NCBI GenBank assembly: GCA_030754595.1
Contig: JASLZZ010000050.1
Location: 1-58,283, forward strand
DNA length: 58,283 nucleotides
Direction: 5' to 3'
Origin: Nitrospinota bacterium
GTDB lineage: Bacteria; UBA8248
Shown here: piece by piece, positions 11,809-17,800 of the stretch
Position numbering within the stretch: the stretch's first letter is position 1
How the letters are laid out: the number at the start of each line of letters is the position of its first letter
Made by a program: the position numbers

Positions 11809-14800
11809 TAACCCTTTTTTCGCCCCTGCTCTAGCCGCCTAGCCGGAGGTGCCATGTTGGAATGGTCCGATGACCGCTCCGGCGTGCGGGGCACCGGATA
11901 TTCTTTCCCGGTCCTTTCGATCCTTACCCTGTTCGTGGGGTGGGGCCTCTTCGCCGCGCCCGCTGCCATGGCGGCGGTTAGCGTGACAGCCCTCCGGCAC
12001 TTCAGCACCGAGGGCTACACCCGGGTTGTTCTCATCCTGGACCGGGAGTCCCTTAATTTTCGCTCAGGCCGCTTAAAAAATCCGCCACGCCTTTTTGTGG
12101 ACATTCCCTCCGGCCGCCTCCGGCCGGGATTTCAGGTGCCCTCGTTCGACAAAACCAGCATTGCCCGAAAGCTCCGCGTCGGCCGCCCCGGTAAAAACAT
12201 GATGCGTCTCGTAATCGAATTGCGGGGAGGAAAAAACCGCCACAAAATTTTTACCCTTCCCGATCCCAACCGGATTGTGATCGATTTGCGGGAGATCCGG
12301 ATTGCCAGAATGCGTCCGCACCCCTCACAAGCGCGTTCCGGGAAGAGACGTGCTCCTAGGGCGGCTCGCTCCCGGCCCGGCCCGGGAGGCCGGTCACCCG
12401 CCGGCGACGACCGAATTGGGCGTGCGATCCTAGAGGAAGTGGGCAGGAGCCCTGTTCCGGAAGATAAAAAACGGCGATCGCTGAATATGACGGCGCGCTT
12501 CCGGGCAGGCCTCGGCCGCATTGTTCTTGATCCGGGACATGGGGGAAGAGACCCCGGCGCCTCCGGCCTATACGGCCTTGTCGAGAAAAAAGTGGTTCTC
12601 GATATTTCCAGGCGAACGGCCGCGGCGCTTCGCGGTTTGCTTCCCGCAGGGAACACCGTTCTTTTAACGCGCAACCGGGACCGCTTCATCGAGCTTGCCG
12701 ATCGGACATCGTTCGCCAACCGCCACGACGCCGACGTTTTTGTCTCAATCCATCTCAACAGCTCACCGATTCGGAGAACCAGAGGAGTGGAAACCTACCT
12801 GCTGGCCGAGGCCTCTACGCCTCGGGCAATGGCGCTGGCGGCCCGGGAGAGCGGAACCACTGTCAGCCGCCTGAGCGACTTGCAAAAAATCATCAACGAT
12901 TTGACGGTCCGATCGAAAGTGACTGAGTCGCAACTACTCGCCAACGCAGTCCAAAAATCGTCGGTCGCCCGTCTTCGGAAGAAATATCCGGAGGTTAAGG
13001 ATCTGGGCGTGAAGCGGGGCCCCTTCTATGTTCTCGTTGGCGCTAAAATGCCGAGCATCCTTATTGAAATGGCGTTTATCACCAACTCGGGGGAGGCCAG
13101 GCGATTGCGCACGAAGAAATACCGCCATGCCCTGTCCGAGGGAATCGCCAAGGGGATAACGAGGTTCGTAGGTATTTCCGTACAGCGCGCCTCCGGCGCC
13201 TCGCTTATTACCGGAAAGGCCCAGCCTTAGCGGAAGGGTAAACCCCTAGCGAAAGGGCCCGGCCTTGGGACGTAATTTCCGATAACAATCGGCTGGAATC
13301 CTGGATCAATCATGCCACTTCCCGTAATCGTCATCGTAGGACGCCCCAACGTGGGGAAGTCCACCCTCTTTAATCGCCTTATCGGCCGGCGGCAGGCCAT
13401 TGTAGAAGCCTCGCCGGGCGTGACCCGGGACCGCCACTATGGCCGGGGGGAGTGGGAGGGAACCCCGTTTCTCGCTGTGGACACCGGCGGTATCACCGAT
13501 GCCGAGGAGGACCCCTTCAGCCCGCTGATCAACCGCCAGGCCGCCGCCGCTATCGAAGAGGGCGATGTGGTGATCTTCATGCTGGACGGCCGCGAGGGGG
13601 TGACTTCGGCGGACGAAAATATTGCCGGGATGGTGCGGGTTACCGGGAAACCGGTCCTGCTCGTCGTTAACAAAACTGACGCAAACCAGGCGCGGGAGGG
13701 AGTTTGGGATTTTTTCGGGCTCGGCCTGGGCGAGCCACGTAGCATCTCGGCCGAGCATGGCGCGGGCGTAAGCGATTTGATCGATGAGGCGCTGGGAATG
13801 GGTCCCGGAGAGGAGCCCGAGCCTTCCTCCGGGGACGGGGAGATCCGTGTCGCTGTCGTCGGCCGGCCCAACGCCGGCAAATCCTCGCTAATCAACTCCC
13901 TGCTGGGCGAGGAGCGCATCCTCGTCAGCCCCGTTCCGGGGACCACCCGCGACCCGATCGACTCTCTTTGCCGCCAGGGAGAGACCCTCTATCGCTTCGT
14001 GGACACCGCCGGAATCCGGAAAAGGGGAAAAGTCGGGAACAACAAGGCCGATGTCGTGAGCATGATCCTTGCCTTCAGGAGCATCGAACGCGCCGAAGCC
14101 GTCTTGTTGGTGGTGGACGCAACCGAGGGACCGAAGGCCATCGACGCCCATATTGCCCGGCACATCGTCGATTCGGGCCGCGCCTGCGCCGTATTGCTGA
14201 ACAAATGGGACCTGGTCGTAAAAGACGAGAAGAGCTTCGATGAAAACGTTCAGTTGGTTCACCGGAAACTCATTCACATCGATTTCGCGCCCGTGGTTTC
14301 AATTTCCGCGCTGAGCGGGCAGCGGACGGACAGGATTTTCGGCCTGATCGACCTGATTATCGCTTCCCACCGCCGCCGCGTCTCGACCGGAAAGCTCAAT
14401 CAGGCGTTCAATCGTTGGACGAGGGAGCATCCACCCCCCTCAGGCCGGACCGGCCGCCGCCCCAACCTTCTCTATGCCACCCAGGCCTCGGTCGCCCCGC
14501 CTCAATTCGTCGTTTTCGCCTCTCGGGCAAAAAACCTGCCCGAGGCGCAATACAGCCGCTTCATCGAAAACCGTTTGCGCAAGGAATTCGATTTCGAGGG
14601 GACGGCGGTTCGCGTGAGCTTCAGGAAACGTATGTTGAAAAAAGGCAGCGGCGGCGCCAGGCGGGGAAGGGGAGAGAAACCCAAGAGCCGTCCTTTCCGG
14701 CAAAAGCGCTGACTTTTCCTGATCTAACTCCTGTCTTTCGGCGGCCGCTTTTCGCCCGGCTCTCCATCAACGAAAATATCGTCCACACGCTCGGGGTAGA

Positions 14801-17800
14801 AGGCCAGCAGACCTCTGATTTTCGGACATTCCGGTATCGGGTTCGGGTAGCTCCAAACGATATCCTCGAAAACCTCTCCGCCCAACTCGGCCGACCAATA
14901 CACCGCGGTCCCCTTGTAGGGGCAAACGGAAGTGCGCTCGGTTTGGGTCAATATCTCCATCCGAACATCTTCCCCGGGGAGGTAGTAGCGGGGCGGCAGG
15001 CCCGTTTCGAATAGAATATGAGGGCGGCGGCTTTCGGCAATTGTCTCTCCCGCCAGTACAACGCGGATATGGCGCGAGCTTTTCAGCACATCGACCCGCT
15101 TGTAGGGGTCCCTTGGGTGGAGGAATACCTCCTCGTCCTCTTCGTACCATGCGTCCAACCGGTTCCAGTAAAAGGCGATATATTTCGAAATCTCGGGAAC
15201 GCTTTCGATGGGGTTCTCGTAGCTCCAAACCGCGTTTTCGGCCGTCCGGTCCCGGACGGTAAGCGTCCAATAGGACGCATCTCCCTTTACGGGTCAGTGG
15301 GTGCTGTTATCGGTCCGCTCCATGAGATCCATCCGGACCTCCTCGCGGGGAAAATAATAAACCGGGGTGTGCCATGCCTCGCGCATTAACAAGGCTTGTC
15401 GGCTGTCGGCGATAGTTTCACCCCCAAAGAGCACCCGCACCCTCCTGGGGCACACCTCGTTGTGGACCCAATGTTCCTCCTCCGCGCTAATTCCAGCCGG
15501 CCTAGGCGCCATTATCCGTCTCCCTTCCGCAAGTGAATTGGTTATCTTCGGGACACTCATATCCAAATAAAAGGGTATTGGGCAACCACGCTGGATCAGG
15601 TGGCCGAATTAGCCAGTTCCGCGGGCGGGGAGTCATGCATTCGCCACATAGGGCAGGGGGGGAACCTCTCCAATTTCCCATTACCTTTTCCCGCCTGCAC
15701 CCAGCACCGTTCCCATTCAGAAAAAAGCGATGAGTATCAATTGTTTATGGCATCAAAAACTTGAAGCCTAGCTTTAAGCACCCACCTCCAAATCTTTCAT
15801 TATGATTGACAAAATAGGTATTCGAATGGCACGATTACTTCAGGTTTATTCTAGATATAAGGGTTTGCGATTCTTTATGACACACTGGGTTTTTTCTCCA
15901 CTCATAATTCGAAATTAAAGGAGTTCATTTTTATGGCCGCGCTGGAGGTAGGGGCCCTTCGAAACGTGGGCTTTTTGGGCGAAGGAGGCAACGGGAAAAC
16001 TTCTCTTGTCGAGGCCTGCCTTTTTACCGCAGGAAGTACGGACCGGCAGGGAAAGGTCGATCAGGGCAATACCATCCTCGACGGAGAACCCGAAGAAATA
16101 AACAGAAACTCCTCGATAACCGCCGCCGTCAGTTTCGCCGACTGGAATAAACACCATCTCAACCTTTTGGACACTCCTGGCTACTCCAATTTCATCGCCG
16201 AAACCGTAGCCTGTATCCGCGCCATGGATAATTCCGTCATCGTGCTGAATTCCCATGACGACCCCAAGGTCACGACAGAGAAGGTATTCAGCTGGGCGGG
16301 CGAGGAAAAAATTCCCCGTTTTATATTCGTCAACCACATGGACCACGAACAGGCCGATTACCTCGGCGCATTGCAAAAAGCGGAATCCCTTCTCGGCACC
16401 CGGGTGGCGGCGCTCCAGTTGCCCATCGGGAGCGGAGAGGATTTCCGCGGGGTAGTGGACCTGGTCTTGGGAAAGGCGTTCACATACAAGACGGACGAGA
16501 GCGGCAAGGGCAGCGAGGAGGATATCCCCGCCGAGCTTGCCGACACCTATGAGGAAATGCGGGGAAAACTAATCGAATTCGCCGCCGAGGCCGACGAGGC
16601 GCTCTTGGAGAAATATCTCGAAGGAGAAGAATTGACATCCGATGAATTCGTCGGTGGATTAAAGCAGGGAATCTTGGAAGGTTCCTTTCTTCCCGCCCTT
16701 TGCGGATGCGGGGTGAAAAATATTGGGACCGACGCCCTTCTCGATGCCCTGGTTAAATACGGCGCCTCTCCGGACGTCAGGTCCTTTGTCTCGGCAAGCG
16801 CGGGCGAGGACAATGAGATTGCCGTAGAAGCGGACCCTGATGCACCGTTCAGGGCATTGGTGTTCAAGACCGTTGTGGATTCATTCGCCGGAAAATTGAA
16901 TATATTCAGGGTGATGTCCGGTTCGATATCCGCCGACTCTTCGGTCCTGAACCCCAACAAAGACGAAAAGGAGCGGTTGGGGGCACTCGTATATATTCAG
17001 GGGAAAAATCAACAACCCGTTTCCGGCAATCTTGTACCGGGCGATATCGCGGCGGTGGCTAAACTCAAGGTCACCGAAACCGGCGACACCCTTTGCGACG
17101 AAAAAGTCAGCGAAAAGTTCAATTCCATCCAGTACCCGACCCCGGTGATTTCATATGCCATCGCTCCCAAGAGCAAAGGAGACGAGGAAAAACTCAGCAC
17201 CGCCCTGAAGCGAATGCAGGATGAAGACCCCGTTTTGACCACCGGCAGGGATACCCAAACCAACGAGTTGCTTCTTTCGGGCCTGGGCGTACTCCACATC
17301 GAGGTCGCCATCAATCGCATCAAGCGAAAATACAATGTCGAAGTTGAAATGCGAACTCCTCGCGTTCCCTACAGGGAGACCATCAAGGGCAAAACCAAGG
17401 TTCAGGGGCGCTATAAGAAGCAAACCGGCGGGAAGGGACAGTTTGGCGATACGTGGCTCGAGATTGAACCGCTTTCCAGGGGCGACGGTTTTGAATTTAT
17501 CGATAAAATCGTCGGCGGGGTGATTCCCAAGACCTACATACCGGCCGTCAAGAAGGGGATTGTCGAGGCAATGGAAACCGGCGCCCTCGCGGGCTATCCG
17601 GTTACCGACCTCAAGGTGACGCTGTTCGACGGAAGCTATCACAATGTCGATAGCTCTGAGATGGCGTTTAAAATTGCCGGTTCGATGGGTTTTAAAAAAG
17701 GTGTGGCGGGTTGTAAGCCCACTTTGCTCGAGCCCATCATGAACATGGAAATTACCGTTTCCGACGATTACATGGGGGACATTATCGGTGACATGAATTC

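Follow-up and report, generated by a model that had tools for sequence, protein, structure and literature searches.

A tandem DUF427 gene of a Nitrospinota bacterium with an in-frame UGA predicted to encode selenocysteine

Introduction

Does the in-frame UGA found within a DUF427 gene of a Nitrospinota bacterium end a protein, or is it read as selenocysteine (Sec)? The locus lies on the minus strand of a contig (JASLZZ010000050.1, assembly GCA_030754595.1) that was analysed over its 58,283 nucleotides, the whole stretch being referred to here as the window, and the ORF listing splits it into two pieces at the UGA. A preliminary description had joined these two pieces (g01201 and g01200) into one gene. 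We consider it highly probable that the two called fragments are indeed a single selenoprotein gene, in which UGA73 would be decoded as Sec.

Gene and Protein Layout

Reading TGA as U, we recovered the complete gene with the following landmarks:

14724..15512, minus strand: complete gene of a 262-aa tandem DUF427 protein, read with TGA as U
15510-15512, minus strand: start codon ATG, with a GGGAG Shine-Dalgarno-like motif upstream
15162..15443, minus strand: DUF427 domain 1, approximately residues 24-117, bounded by aligning the internal repeats
15294..15296, minus strand: in-frame TGA, predicted selenocysteine codon U73, at the Cys position of the domain 1 C-P-x-K-G motif
14790..15068, minus strand: DUF427 domain 2, residues 149-241, with Cys197 kept in CPYKG
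14922-14924, minus strand: codon of Cys197 in domain 2
14724-14726, minus strand: stop codon TAG

The frame contains this single internal TGA. The predicted Sec stands in the context NSTH-U-PVKGDASYW, and the counterpart motif of domain 2, TSV-C-PYKGTAVYW, holds Cys197. Pfam family PF04248 matches the protein in two stretches (E 7.4e-70; 231.3 bits vs. a gathering cut-off of 22.1), and in the alignment with PDB 3djm the Cys of tACPlKGeASYy falls opposite U (E 4.5e-16). The single 262-aa gene, its two domains, the distribution of Sec and Cys between them and the position of the 3djm Cys were thus all reproduced as first described. The domain is the same as in the Cys-containing DUF427 proteins (PF04248, NTP_transf_9, COG2343), among them 3djm from Rhodobacter sphaeroides, and the architecture is shared with the Cys two-domain proteins (6275 at E<=1e-20). 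What sets the window gene apart from these is the predicted Sec in place of the domain 1 motif Cys, together with a SECIS-like RNA in the coding sequence.

The gene is the only one on the minus strand among the housekeeping genes of the window (its neighbours are hprK, metK, ahcY, an amidase, der, an EF-G paralogue and a SPOR-domain gene). An RNA match was found in one 172-nt metatranscriptome contig, which covers only 14730-14896, in the 3' part of the gene, and is no proof of transcription; this contig came from one RNA run (X20), while a second (X24) had next to no matching words, and neither has a bearing on expression level or habitat.

Conservation of the UGA Codon

A search of the family genomes found the gene in 15 of 42 genomes and 7 of 9 genera, at 57-97% identity, the same range as reported earlier. 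In all 14 orthologues TGA stands in one and the same column, and the in-frame TGA is shared by every family match spanning that column; the sole match without it is, as had been stated, a contig-end fragment past the site, starting at residue 82. One orthologue had been credited with two TGA codons and both exist, the second being the gene's own TGA stop and not an internal codon. An order-level search gave no orthologue beyond those already found.

Outside the lineage, the best 80 loci of other species had been described as having TGC in the column of U. Cys does prevail, being encoded in 71 of the 79 loci that cover the column, but the column is not uniformly TGC, because besides TGC (56 loci) there are TGT (15), TGA (4, from the same lineage as the window), TCT for Ser (2, both in Chloroflexota) and CAY for His (2). 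The sister family has His at this position in all four of its genomes and it also has selB; the nearest non-Sec relatives thus carry His, and not Cys, at the site. Given the His of the sister family and the Ser of Chloroflexota, the U73 site is not indispensable in two-domain proteins, a point against the Sec reading. In 37 single-domain relatives the motif Cys is invariant.

One could read UGA73 as an ordinary stop, in which case the locus would be a split or decaying gene consisting of a 72-aa fragment and a domain-2 protein starting at TTG 15156-15158. Public calls do contain the 72-aa fragment (P0290) and, from a relative, a 139-aa NCBI "DUF427 domain-containing protein", the same two pieces that the ORF listing yields. 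However, the next in-frame start after the UGA is 45 codons downstream, and the codons that would be left untranslated are the best-conserved part of the protein. Over 10 pairs (a few dS values being saturated), dN/dS was 0.09-0.48 upstream of the UGA, 0.15-0.47 over the 54 codons that follow it and 0.11-0.40 in domain 2; purifying selection acts on both sides of the UGA. Moreover, the 72-aa product would be deprived of half of the fold, and the break falls in the same column in all 14 orthologues, down to 57% identity, as well as in an independent clade (see below). We regard an ordinary stop as extremely unlikely.

An assembly or sequencing error is effectively refuted, since contigs from three other studies cover the TGA codon without difference, the identical 72-aa fragment is present with its TGA on 12 contigs, and the codon recurs in the 14 other genomes. 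The same holds for the idea that the organism as a whole reads TGA as sense. More long frames of the genome end in TGA than in any other stop (1148 of 2763), so it has not been reassigned; several orthologues even end this very gene with a TGA stop. We found no point in support of either the error or the sense codon, and give them practically no weight.

Selenocysteine Machinery

The genome has its own selB (364 bits), selA (552 bits), a Sec-type selD (345 bits) that itself contains an internal TGA, and a tRNA-Sec (73.6 bits, with the anticodon tca according to ARAGORN). Of the 42 family genomes, 39 have a selB match above the cut-off, and the three in which none was found (G001, G002 and G011) are 67-91% complete. 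Many other known selenoprotein genes are present. From 20 read-through ORFs picked elsewhere in the genome, 18 match NCBIfam families, seven of them above the cut-off, including UGSC, OsmC-related and GrdB-type (seleno)proteins. A Sec-type FdhA was sought in the same genome as a SECIS reference (TIGR01553) but not found, the best match having 133 bits and no internal stop; SelD and a de novo scan of the genome were used as references instead.

RNA Structure Downstream of the UGA

Strong hairpins had been said to follow the UGA, and this was borne out: the RNA downstream has a folding energy of -36.4 kcal/mol (z -3.44), a stability that none of 200 shuffles equalled, and contains two adjacent conserved hairpins with synonymous constraint:

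15263..15278, minus strand: hairpin 1, GCGUCC-UAUU-GGACGC, loop beginning 21 nt past the UGA, 98.9% of cells paired over 15 orthologues
15242..15259, minus strand: hairpin 2, CCGUCCG-GGAC-CGGACGG, with a G-first loop beginning 41 nt past the UGA

Hairpin 1 sits on codons A79-S80-Y81-W82-T83, for which invariant, non-preferred synonymous codons are used: Ala79 is GCG in 13 of 13 sequences, Ser80 is TCC in 12 and TCT in one, and Thr83 is ACG in 12 of 12, while the gene-wide shares of these Ala, Ser and Thr codons are 35%, 25% and 37%. Only 5 of the 76 four- or six-fold columns are codon-invariant. Hairpin 2 covaries at pairs 45-60 (CG 9, GC 5, UA 1) and 48-57 (CG 14, UA 1), with compensatory double synonymous changes in two orthologues. 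Compared with synonymous shuffles, the Sec forms have a median z of -2.41, and for 10 of 14 no more than 5 of 100 shuffles reach the same stability, whereas the 71 Cys forms have a median z of -0.11 and only three behave in this way. Both hairpins are under selection, and the Cys homologues are without them.

The published bSECIS rule (PMC13188914) describes a loop of 3-9 nt on a stem of 4-16 bp, with G in the first two loop bases, located 16-37 nt after the UGA and with an MFE <= -7.5. As in the canonical bacterial SECIS of the E. coli fdhF type, the hairpins are part of the coding sequence and follow closely on the UGA, on its 3' side, but there are two of them; hairpin 1, with a U-A-Y-U loop, lacks the G that the rule asks for at the first or second loop base, and hairpin 2, with its G-G loop, starts at 41 nt, outside the range. 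A middle hairpin that does fit the rule (29 nt, loop GCUUACC) is present in only 7 of 14 orthologues. Thus the modelling of a SECIS across orthologues, which the preliminary description still lacked, gave conserved hairpins, while neither of them alone agrees with the published consensus. Rfam had no match on 15150-15350. In eight well-supported selenoprotein genes of the genome, selected by a filter requiring a G-loop hairpin at 14-39 nt, the loop lies 16-20 nt after the UGA.

A GUCC/GGAC stem occurs in SelD, in an ArsM-like gene and in both DUF427 hairpins. As a SelB signature of the organism it was dropped, being missing from most other Sec genes.

We propose that at UGA73 the ribosome would be met by SelB carrying Sec-tRNA(Sec), recruited by the mRNA structure directly downstream within the coding region. 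Sec would take the position that an almost invariant Cys holds in the DUF427 motif C-P-x-K-G, and translation would then run on to the end of domain 1 and through domain 2. Our working guess is that hairpin 2, with its G-first loop, may be the SelB site, and that hairpin 1 may fold away the sequence of the fixed K-G-D-A-S-Y-W codons, cutting the effective distance of 41 nt.

A Second Group of Sec-DUF427 Genes

Sec-DUF427 is not confined to the lineage of the window. A second, independent Sec clade, made mostly of single-domain genes (about 130 aa) with a few two-domain ones, was found in other MAGs and in many metagenomes; by DNA-pattern search, 13 of 13 genome matches and 27 of 27 metagenome matches were DUF427 with an in-frame TGA, and selB is present in the three host genomes out of three. 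Here the canonical SECIS is matched fully, with a 7-bp stem and a 5-nt loop, C-G-[U/G]-G-[U/C], that has G second and starts 33 nt after the UGA. At each of the seven stem positions, 18-20 of 20 distinct sequences form the pair, one G-C pair being replaced by a compensatory A-U, and by scan 18 of the 20 agree with the bSECIS rule at one fixed position. Overall MFE against synonymous shuffles is weak in this clade (median z -0.79; 1 of 20), the position-specific hairpin count being the informative measure. In public gene calls, 58 of 101 single-domain clusters end at the UGA.

In a tree of 59 two-domain rows, built without alternate Cys rows and without L037, which is frameshifted, Sec needs three changes, at least two of them forced by starred branches. 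Placing all 17 Sec rows in one clade gave an AU test p of 0.038, a borderline value for a group defined post hoc. The idea of a single origin of Sec was dropped. There are at least two SECIS solutions, and we claim no number of Sec origins beyond that.

The second clade also bears on whether the UGA could be read through by a near-cognate or suppressor tRNA (Trp, Cys or Arg), with the hairpins merely slowing the ribosome or stimulating read-through. The misfit of both hairpins to the bSECIS consensus would suit such a process, and the inserted residue is a prediction from sequence. However, this genome has complete Sec machinery and many other Sec genes, Cys in 71 of 79 homologues makes a classic Sec/Cys pairing, and a canonical bSECIS is found at this very site in the second clade. 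Besides, TGA has been kept although it is one base away from TGC, which would be difficult to account for if Sec conferred no benefit. We find this possibility very unlikely, and decoding as Sec remains by far our preferred reading.

Catalogue Status and Possible Function

DUF427 had been described as absent from the known selenoprotein families, and we came to the same result: it is missing from the 119 families and subfamilies of the 2026 catalogue (PMC13188914 Table 1; the full table and a term search agree), from BSepDB and from NCBIfam. A repeated search again gave no NCBIfam model matching the 262-aa protein. The locus shows the computational hallmarks of a bacterial selenoprotein gene, except for a textbook-fitting SECIS in the lineage of the window. 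The type of evidence (conserved UGA, Cys homologues, downstream hairpin and a Sec-using host) is the same as for the predicted selenoprotein families of unknown function DUF3179, DUF1573, DUF523 and DUF166 in that table. Most likely, DUF427 is a selenoprotein family uncatalogued so far. Its U-P-x-K-G motif is unlike the UxxC/CxxU redox motifs.

An AlphaFold2 model of a single-domain Sec relative, P0122 (pLDDT 92), which was modelled in place of the two-domain protein, superimposes on 3djm with Z 19.2 and an rmsd of 1.1 over 113 residues, and places the motif residue where a beta-strand ends, immediately ahead of the P-x-K-G turn. From this position and the replacement of a near-invariant Cys by Sec, U73 would most likely be the catalytic redox or nucleophilic centre of a beta-tent-fold domain. 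Passages of PMC4287342 assign DUF427 to this fold with MsrB, Gfa, Mss4, TCTP, CULT and the RIG-I CTD, and report there neither detectable sequence similarity to MsrB nor a zinc site. MsrB, a methionine-R-sulfoxide reductase of the same general fold class whose mammalian MsrB1 (SelR) is a selenoprotein, alternates like DUF427 between Cys and Sec at a single residue. The model matches human MsrB1 3mao with Z 5.9 over 92 residues and S. aureus MsrB with Z 4.8, and the comparison tool itself notes Z 5-6 as lying within the range of common arrangements; the likeness to MsrB is one of fold only. Pfam and NCBIfam searches of the 262-aa protein gave no MsrB match, and we estimate that U73 is linearly closer to the second zinc-knuckle hairpin than the Sec of MsrB1.

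Gene context, in the window and around three second-clade loci (where nothing is shared), gave no functional lead. According to Table 1 of PMC13674229, 5.7% of clusters encode COG2343 alongside EgtB/SenA-type synthases; in our genome an EgtB-like frame (321 bits, below the cut-off of 360) is on another contig, not adjoining the DUF427 gene, and we treat this link as a literature lead only. DUF427 proteins might be selenol/thiol redox enzymes of the beta-tent fold, functionally analogous to MsrB, with the CPxKG Cys/Sec as the catalytic residue, possibly acting on sulfoxide/selenoxide intermediates or on oxidised thio/seleno-imidazoles, the EgtB/SenA co-occurrence being the lead. The lineage of the window would in addition use a two-hairpin SECIS, whose spacer hairpin, set on codons that cannot change, brings the G-loop hairpin at 41 nt within the reach of SelB. 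This joint proposal is speculative and rather unlikely.

Implications

Few sequence-based pointers to a catalytic redox site are as strong as the alternation of Sec and Cys at a single residue, so that DUF427 acquires its first testable functional hypothesis. The prokaryotic selenoproteome would gain a family that is missing from the 2026 review catalogue and from the BSepDB paper, and whose Sec genes are systematically truncated in public gene calls. The two-hairpin arrangement in the lineage of the window, if true, lies outside the current bSECIS model and represents a bacterial Sec gene that would escape standard SECIS models, which bears on selenoproteome counts in Sec-rich marine bacteria.

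Predicted Selenocysteine in a Two-Domain DUF427 Gene

The gene described here is very probably a genuine DUF427 gene with a selenocysteine (Sec) codon. Its features are as follows:

14724-15512, minus strand: gene with two DUF427 domains, a single frame of 262 codons with one internal stop
15510-15512, minus strand: start codon ATG, preceded by a GGGAG motif
15294-15296, minus strand: internal TGA (U73) in domain 1, context NSTH-U-PVKGDASYW
14724-14726, minus strand: stop codon TAG, eleven bases from the convergent der gene

The Pfam family PF04248 (DUF427, "NTP_transf_9") matched the 262-codon frame twice (E 7.4e-70), and the two halves of the protein can be aligned to each other over ca. 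98 residues. Domain 2 has the motif TSV-C-PYKGTAVYW, in which the Cys is residue 197. The only solved DUF427 structure, PDB 3djm, aligned to the protein with an E value of 4.5e-16 and with its own Cys opposite the TGA. The preliminary description had recognized one read-through gene with two DUF427 domains, U in the first and Cys in the second, and the frame, the double Pfam match, the motif and the 3djm alignment all agree with it; nor did any NCBIfam model match the protein, as had been stated.

When the family's 42 genomes were searched in six frames, the gene was located in 15 of them, from 7 of the 9 genera (57-97% identity), and every match that spans the U column has TGA there. This reproduces the earlier claim of a TGA in all orthologues: the sole match without one is a contig-end piece beginning at residue 82, and the match said to carry two TGAs has the Sec codon and that gene's own TGA stop. 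At the order level no further orthologue appeared. The phylum set comprises only 51 genomes, labelled as Nitrospinota or Nitrospinaceae MAGs from seawater. The ratio dN/dS in ten pairs, some with saturated dS, was 0.09-0.48 upstream of the TGA, 0.15-0.47 in the 54 codons directly after it and 0.11-0.40 in domain 2. The first in-frame start downstream lies 45 codons on, so that reading the TGA as a stop would leave the best-conserved stretch of the protein untranslated. The U73 codon was unchanged in contigs of three other studies, and an identical 72-aa N-terminal fragment is recorded on 12 contigs. TGA is not a general sense codon in this organism, as it is the closing stop of 1148 of the 2763 long frames in its genome.

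Two family copies have an unusual structure. In the copy of genome G030 (L037, contig C305), a MAG of 310 contigs, one base is deleted after K-G and one is inserted ca. 44 nt later; 14 codons are left out of frame across the hairpin region, with both RNA hairpins intact at the nucleotide level. The frameshift may be an assembly error; the gene is intact in a complete genome from the same genus. A 2-kb contig of G004 (C619, L038/L124) has a one-domain version in which domain 1, with the TGA and both hairpins, is fused directly to the C-terminal tail; the stretch between the two FY(W/P)-x-R-VD motifs seems to have been lost, through either a real deletion or an assembly collapse. Furthermore, contigs of 151-214 nt from three metagenome runs matched the gene over 33 nt only, at the interdomain linker DAWYEEDEE (15117-15149), and diverged beyond it; these are probably homologues of other organisms sharing the conserved linker.

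Selenoprotein Genes of the Organism

Genes for SelB (364 bits), SelA (552 bits) and SelD (345 bits) are present in the genome, that for SelD having an internal TGA of its own; so is a tRNA-Sec, with 73.6 bits and, by ARAGORN, the anticodon tca. Across the family, selB was over the cut-off in 39 of the 42 genomes; the three that yielded none, G001, G002 and G011, have a completeness of 67-91%. From a scan of the window's genome for frames that are interrupted by TGA, carry a G-loop hairpin and score well for dicodons on either side, we chose 20 by eye (L174-L193, on contigs C18, C47, C63, C72, C78, C84, C105, C108, C109, C114, C116, C117, C118, C126, C131 and C137). As many as 18 matched NCBIfam families, several of them named "(seleno)protein", and seven passed the curated cut-off across the TGA (C-GCAxxG-C-C, two UGSC, OsmC-related, GrdB-type, Ogt and peroxidase-related). 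The genome is rich in selenoprotein genes, with no Sec-type FdhA found in it. The BSepDB paper places three Nitrospinota MAGs among the ten bacteria with most selenoprotein genes (PMC13326102).

There is another such frame in the window:

22535-23395, plus strand: ArsM-like methyltransferase frame, extending upstream through an in-frame TGA (22631-22633), context KEAC-U-PSKRG

Read through the TGA, it matched the arsenite methyltransferase model NF008823 over profile positions 6-269 with 228 bits, below the cut-off of 263. The loop of its hairpin, GGUCCA-GUC-UGGGCU, begins 19 nt after the TGA, and the overall fold z-score was not significant. This is probably another selenoprotein gene of the window, in a family with known selenoproteins.

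RNA Hairpins After the UGA

The strong hairpins that had been reported to follow the UGA are two, adjoining each other and present in all 15 orthologues, with signs of both synonymous constraint and covariation. Their positions relative to the UGA are:

+18 to +33: hairpin 1, GCGUCC-UAYU-GGACGC, loop 21 nt after the UGA
+37 to +54: hairpin 2, CCGUCCG-GGAC-CGGACGG, loop 41 nt after the UGA

Hairpin 1 hardly varies, with 98.9% of the cells paired, one G-U and one mismatch among the 15 orthologues. The codons within it are Ala79 GCG (13 of 13), Ser80 TCC (12, plus one TCT) and Thr83 ACG (12 of 12), while the share of these codons in their families across the same genes is 35% for GCG, 25% for TCC and 37% for ACG, and just 5 of the 76 four- or six-fold columns have the same codon throughout. 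The three synonymous bases each pair with a base fixed by another codon. This invariance is unexplained by the protein sequence. Hairpin 2 covaries, with a shifted register and one bulged A in four of the GC-rich rows. Pair 45-60 is CG in nine rows, GC in five and UA in one, and pair 48-57, CG in 14 rows, has UA in the remaining one; in G039 and G032 both changes of the pair are synonymous. The covariation exceeded that of all slid registers and of all 500 column shuffles, the shuffle test being inflated by relatedness.

We also folded the 60 nt after the codon and compared them with synonymous-codon shuffles that preserve the protein.

Table. Folding of the 60 nt after the Sec or Cys codon.
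Form; rows; median z; rows in which at most 5 of 100 shuffles were as stable
Sec forms of the window's lineage; 14; -2.41; 10
Cys forms; 71; -0.11; 3

The RNA structure is thus tied to the TGA.

The published bacterial SECIS (bSECIS) rule, as given in a 2026 review (PMC13188914), allows loops of 3-9 nt and stems of 4-16 bp, and requires a G among the first two bases of the loop and a distance of 16-37 nt from the UGA. Hairpin 1 departs from it by its loop, where neither of the first two bases is G, and hairpin 2 by its distance, which exceeds the limit by 4 nt. An alternative pairing between the 3' arm of hairpin 1 and the 5' arm of hairpin 2 (loop GCUUACC, 29 nt) fits the rule and is present in only 7 of 14 rows. 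In SelD and the seven cut-off-passing Sec genes of the genome the loops lie 16-20 nt from the UGA, in a set selected by a filter demanding such a hairpin. We infer a two-hairpin arrangement with hairpin 2 as the putative SelB site. Because the K-G-D-A-S-Y-W codons after the UGA would be too constrained to form a hairpin with a G loop at the normal spacing, hairpin 2, placed in the freer codons beyond Trp82, would be the one bound by SelB. Hairpin 1 would fold the constrained stretch, and with its ends close together the effective distance between the UGA and hairpin 2 may be shorter.

A Second Clade and the Public Gene Calls

A degenerate DNA pattern search for U-P-x-K-G-[DE]-A-S-Y-W matched 13 loci among the collected species genomes and another 27 in metagenomes. 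Each of the 40 is a DUF427 frame that has the TGA at its expected position. They include a second clade, outside the lineage of the window, with single-domain forms of ca. 130 aa in two MAGs (labelled Pseudomonadota and beta proteobacterium) and 15 metagenome contigs, and two-domain forms in one MAG (labelled Lambdaproteobacteria) and two contigs. All three genomes have selB over the cut-off. The hairpin of this clade, GUCGCUC-CGUGU-GGGCGAC, differs from those of the window's lineage and is common to 20 distinct sequences, with 7 pairs kept in 18-20 of them, a loop C-G-[U/G]-G-[U/C] 33 nt after the UGA and one compensation of G-C by A-U. It fully meets the bSECIS rule; of the 71 Cys forms put through that scan, no more than 11 had a qualifying hairpin, at scattered positions.

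In a collection of 5.8 billion proteins, the single-domain form matched 101 clusters, and 58 of these are proteins of 75-77 aa that end right before the U (...HS[ST][HR]), one of them with the NCBI name "DUF427 domain-containing protein". The gene of the window is itself recorded as a 72-aa stub (P0290), and domain 2 of a relative as a 139-aa "DUF427 domain-containing protein" by NCBI (P0226). The full-length Cys relatives have only 41-51% identity. From the pattern matches and the stub clusters it follows that Sec-DUF427 is widespread and consistently mis-called. In a tree of 59 two-domain rows three changes are required for Sec, and well-supported branches force two of these; the AU test of all Sec rows as one clade gave p 0.038, which we treat as borderline.

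The Site Without Selenocysteine

Among the best 80 loci of other species, 79 span the U column, with Cys in 71 (56 TGC, 15 TGT), TGA in four, Ser in two (Chloroflexota) and His in two. The preliminary description had given this column as TGC, which stands as far as Cys predominates but not as a uniform codon. The His rows come from a sister family in the same class, whose members are the nearest relatives without Sec (55-59% identity). All four of its genomes (L040-L043, in G050, G044, G045 and G047) have T/A-H/D-H-P-K/H-L/R-G in domain 1, with the motif Lys altered as well. These genomes have selB, and retain the domain 2 Cys in three cases, with Arg in the fourth. Two-domain proteins can therefore lose the site in domain 1. 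Across 37 single-domain relatives the motif Cys is invariant, together with E49, Y57, K80, G81, A83, Y85, W100, Y102, P105, A117 and F118 (numbering of P0122, a single-domain Sec relative).

Fold and Possible Function

The single-domain Sec form was modelled with AlphaFold2 from an alignment of 38 rows (pLDDT 92); in the model, strand 68-77 ends with the U, and the P-x-K-G turn that follows leads into strand 81-90. The model matched 3djm with Z 19.2, followed by Mis18/Yippee (9.2 and 8.5), YPEL5 (6.9), human MsrB1 and bacterial cereblon CULT (both 5.9), RIG-I CTD (5.7), Mss4 (4.8), TCTP (4.0) and Gfa (3.9). These beta-tent matches agree with the assignment of DUF427 to that fold, without a zinc site, in PMC4287342. 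The Z values for MsrB and the other beta-tent domains reflect a common fold with DUF427 and not a common function.

Bacterial Sec residues are usually found at redox-active sites and have Cys counterparts (PMC13188914), and by this analogy U73 most likely serves as a catalytic selenol. Cys197 would either form another active site or act as a resolving thiol. In PMC13674229, COG2343/DUF427 is co-encoded with sulfoxide or selenoxide synthases of the EgtB/SenA type in 5.7% of clusters. The genome of the window has two EgtB-like frames of the sulfoxide-synthase family (C23, 6247-7500, and C130, 19327-20594), one full-length with 321 bits (cut-off 360) and one apparently split; they sit on other contigs, unlinked to the DUF427 gene. 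The neighbourhoods of the Sec-DUF427 loci gave no functional lead.

Novelty and Significance

DUF427/PF04248 is absent from Table 1 of the 2026 review (119 families and subfamilies; PMC13188914), as had been noted before, both in the full table and in a term search. It is likewise absent from NCBIfam, and from the BSepDB paper (PMC13326102) and the 4.0 million characters of its supplement that were searched. One paper had been credited with combining DUF427 and selenocysteine; our literature search, with subscription papers and most supplements beyond its scope, found none that mentions the two together. DUF427 with "selenoprotein" retrieved only the beta-tent paper (PMC4287342), and COG2343 and PF04248 nothing on selenium.

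Sec-DUF427 belongs to a known kind, that of computationally supported new selenoprotein families with Cys homologues. From its sequence, Sec insertion at U73 is predicted, the SECIS assignment is putative and a redox function would fit the site. The SECIS arrangement of the window's lineage would be one that current models miss, and the Sec residue would provide the first functional pointer for a large family of unknown function.
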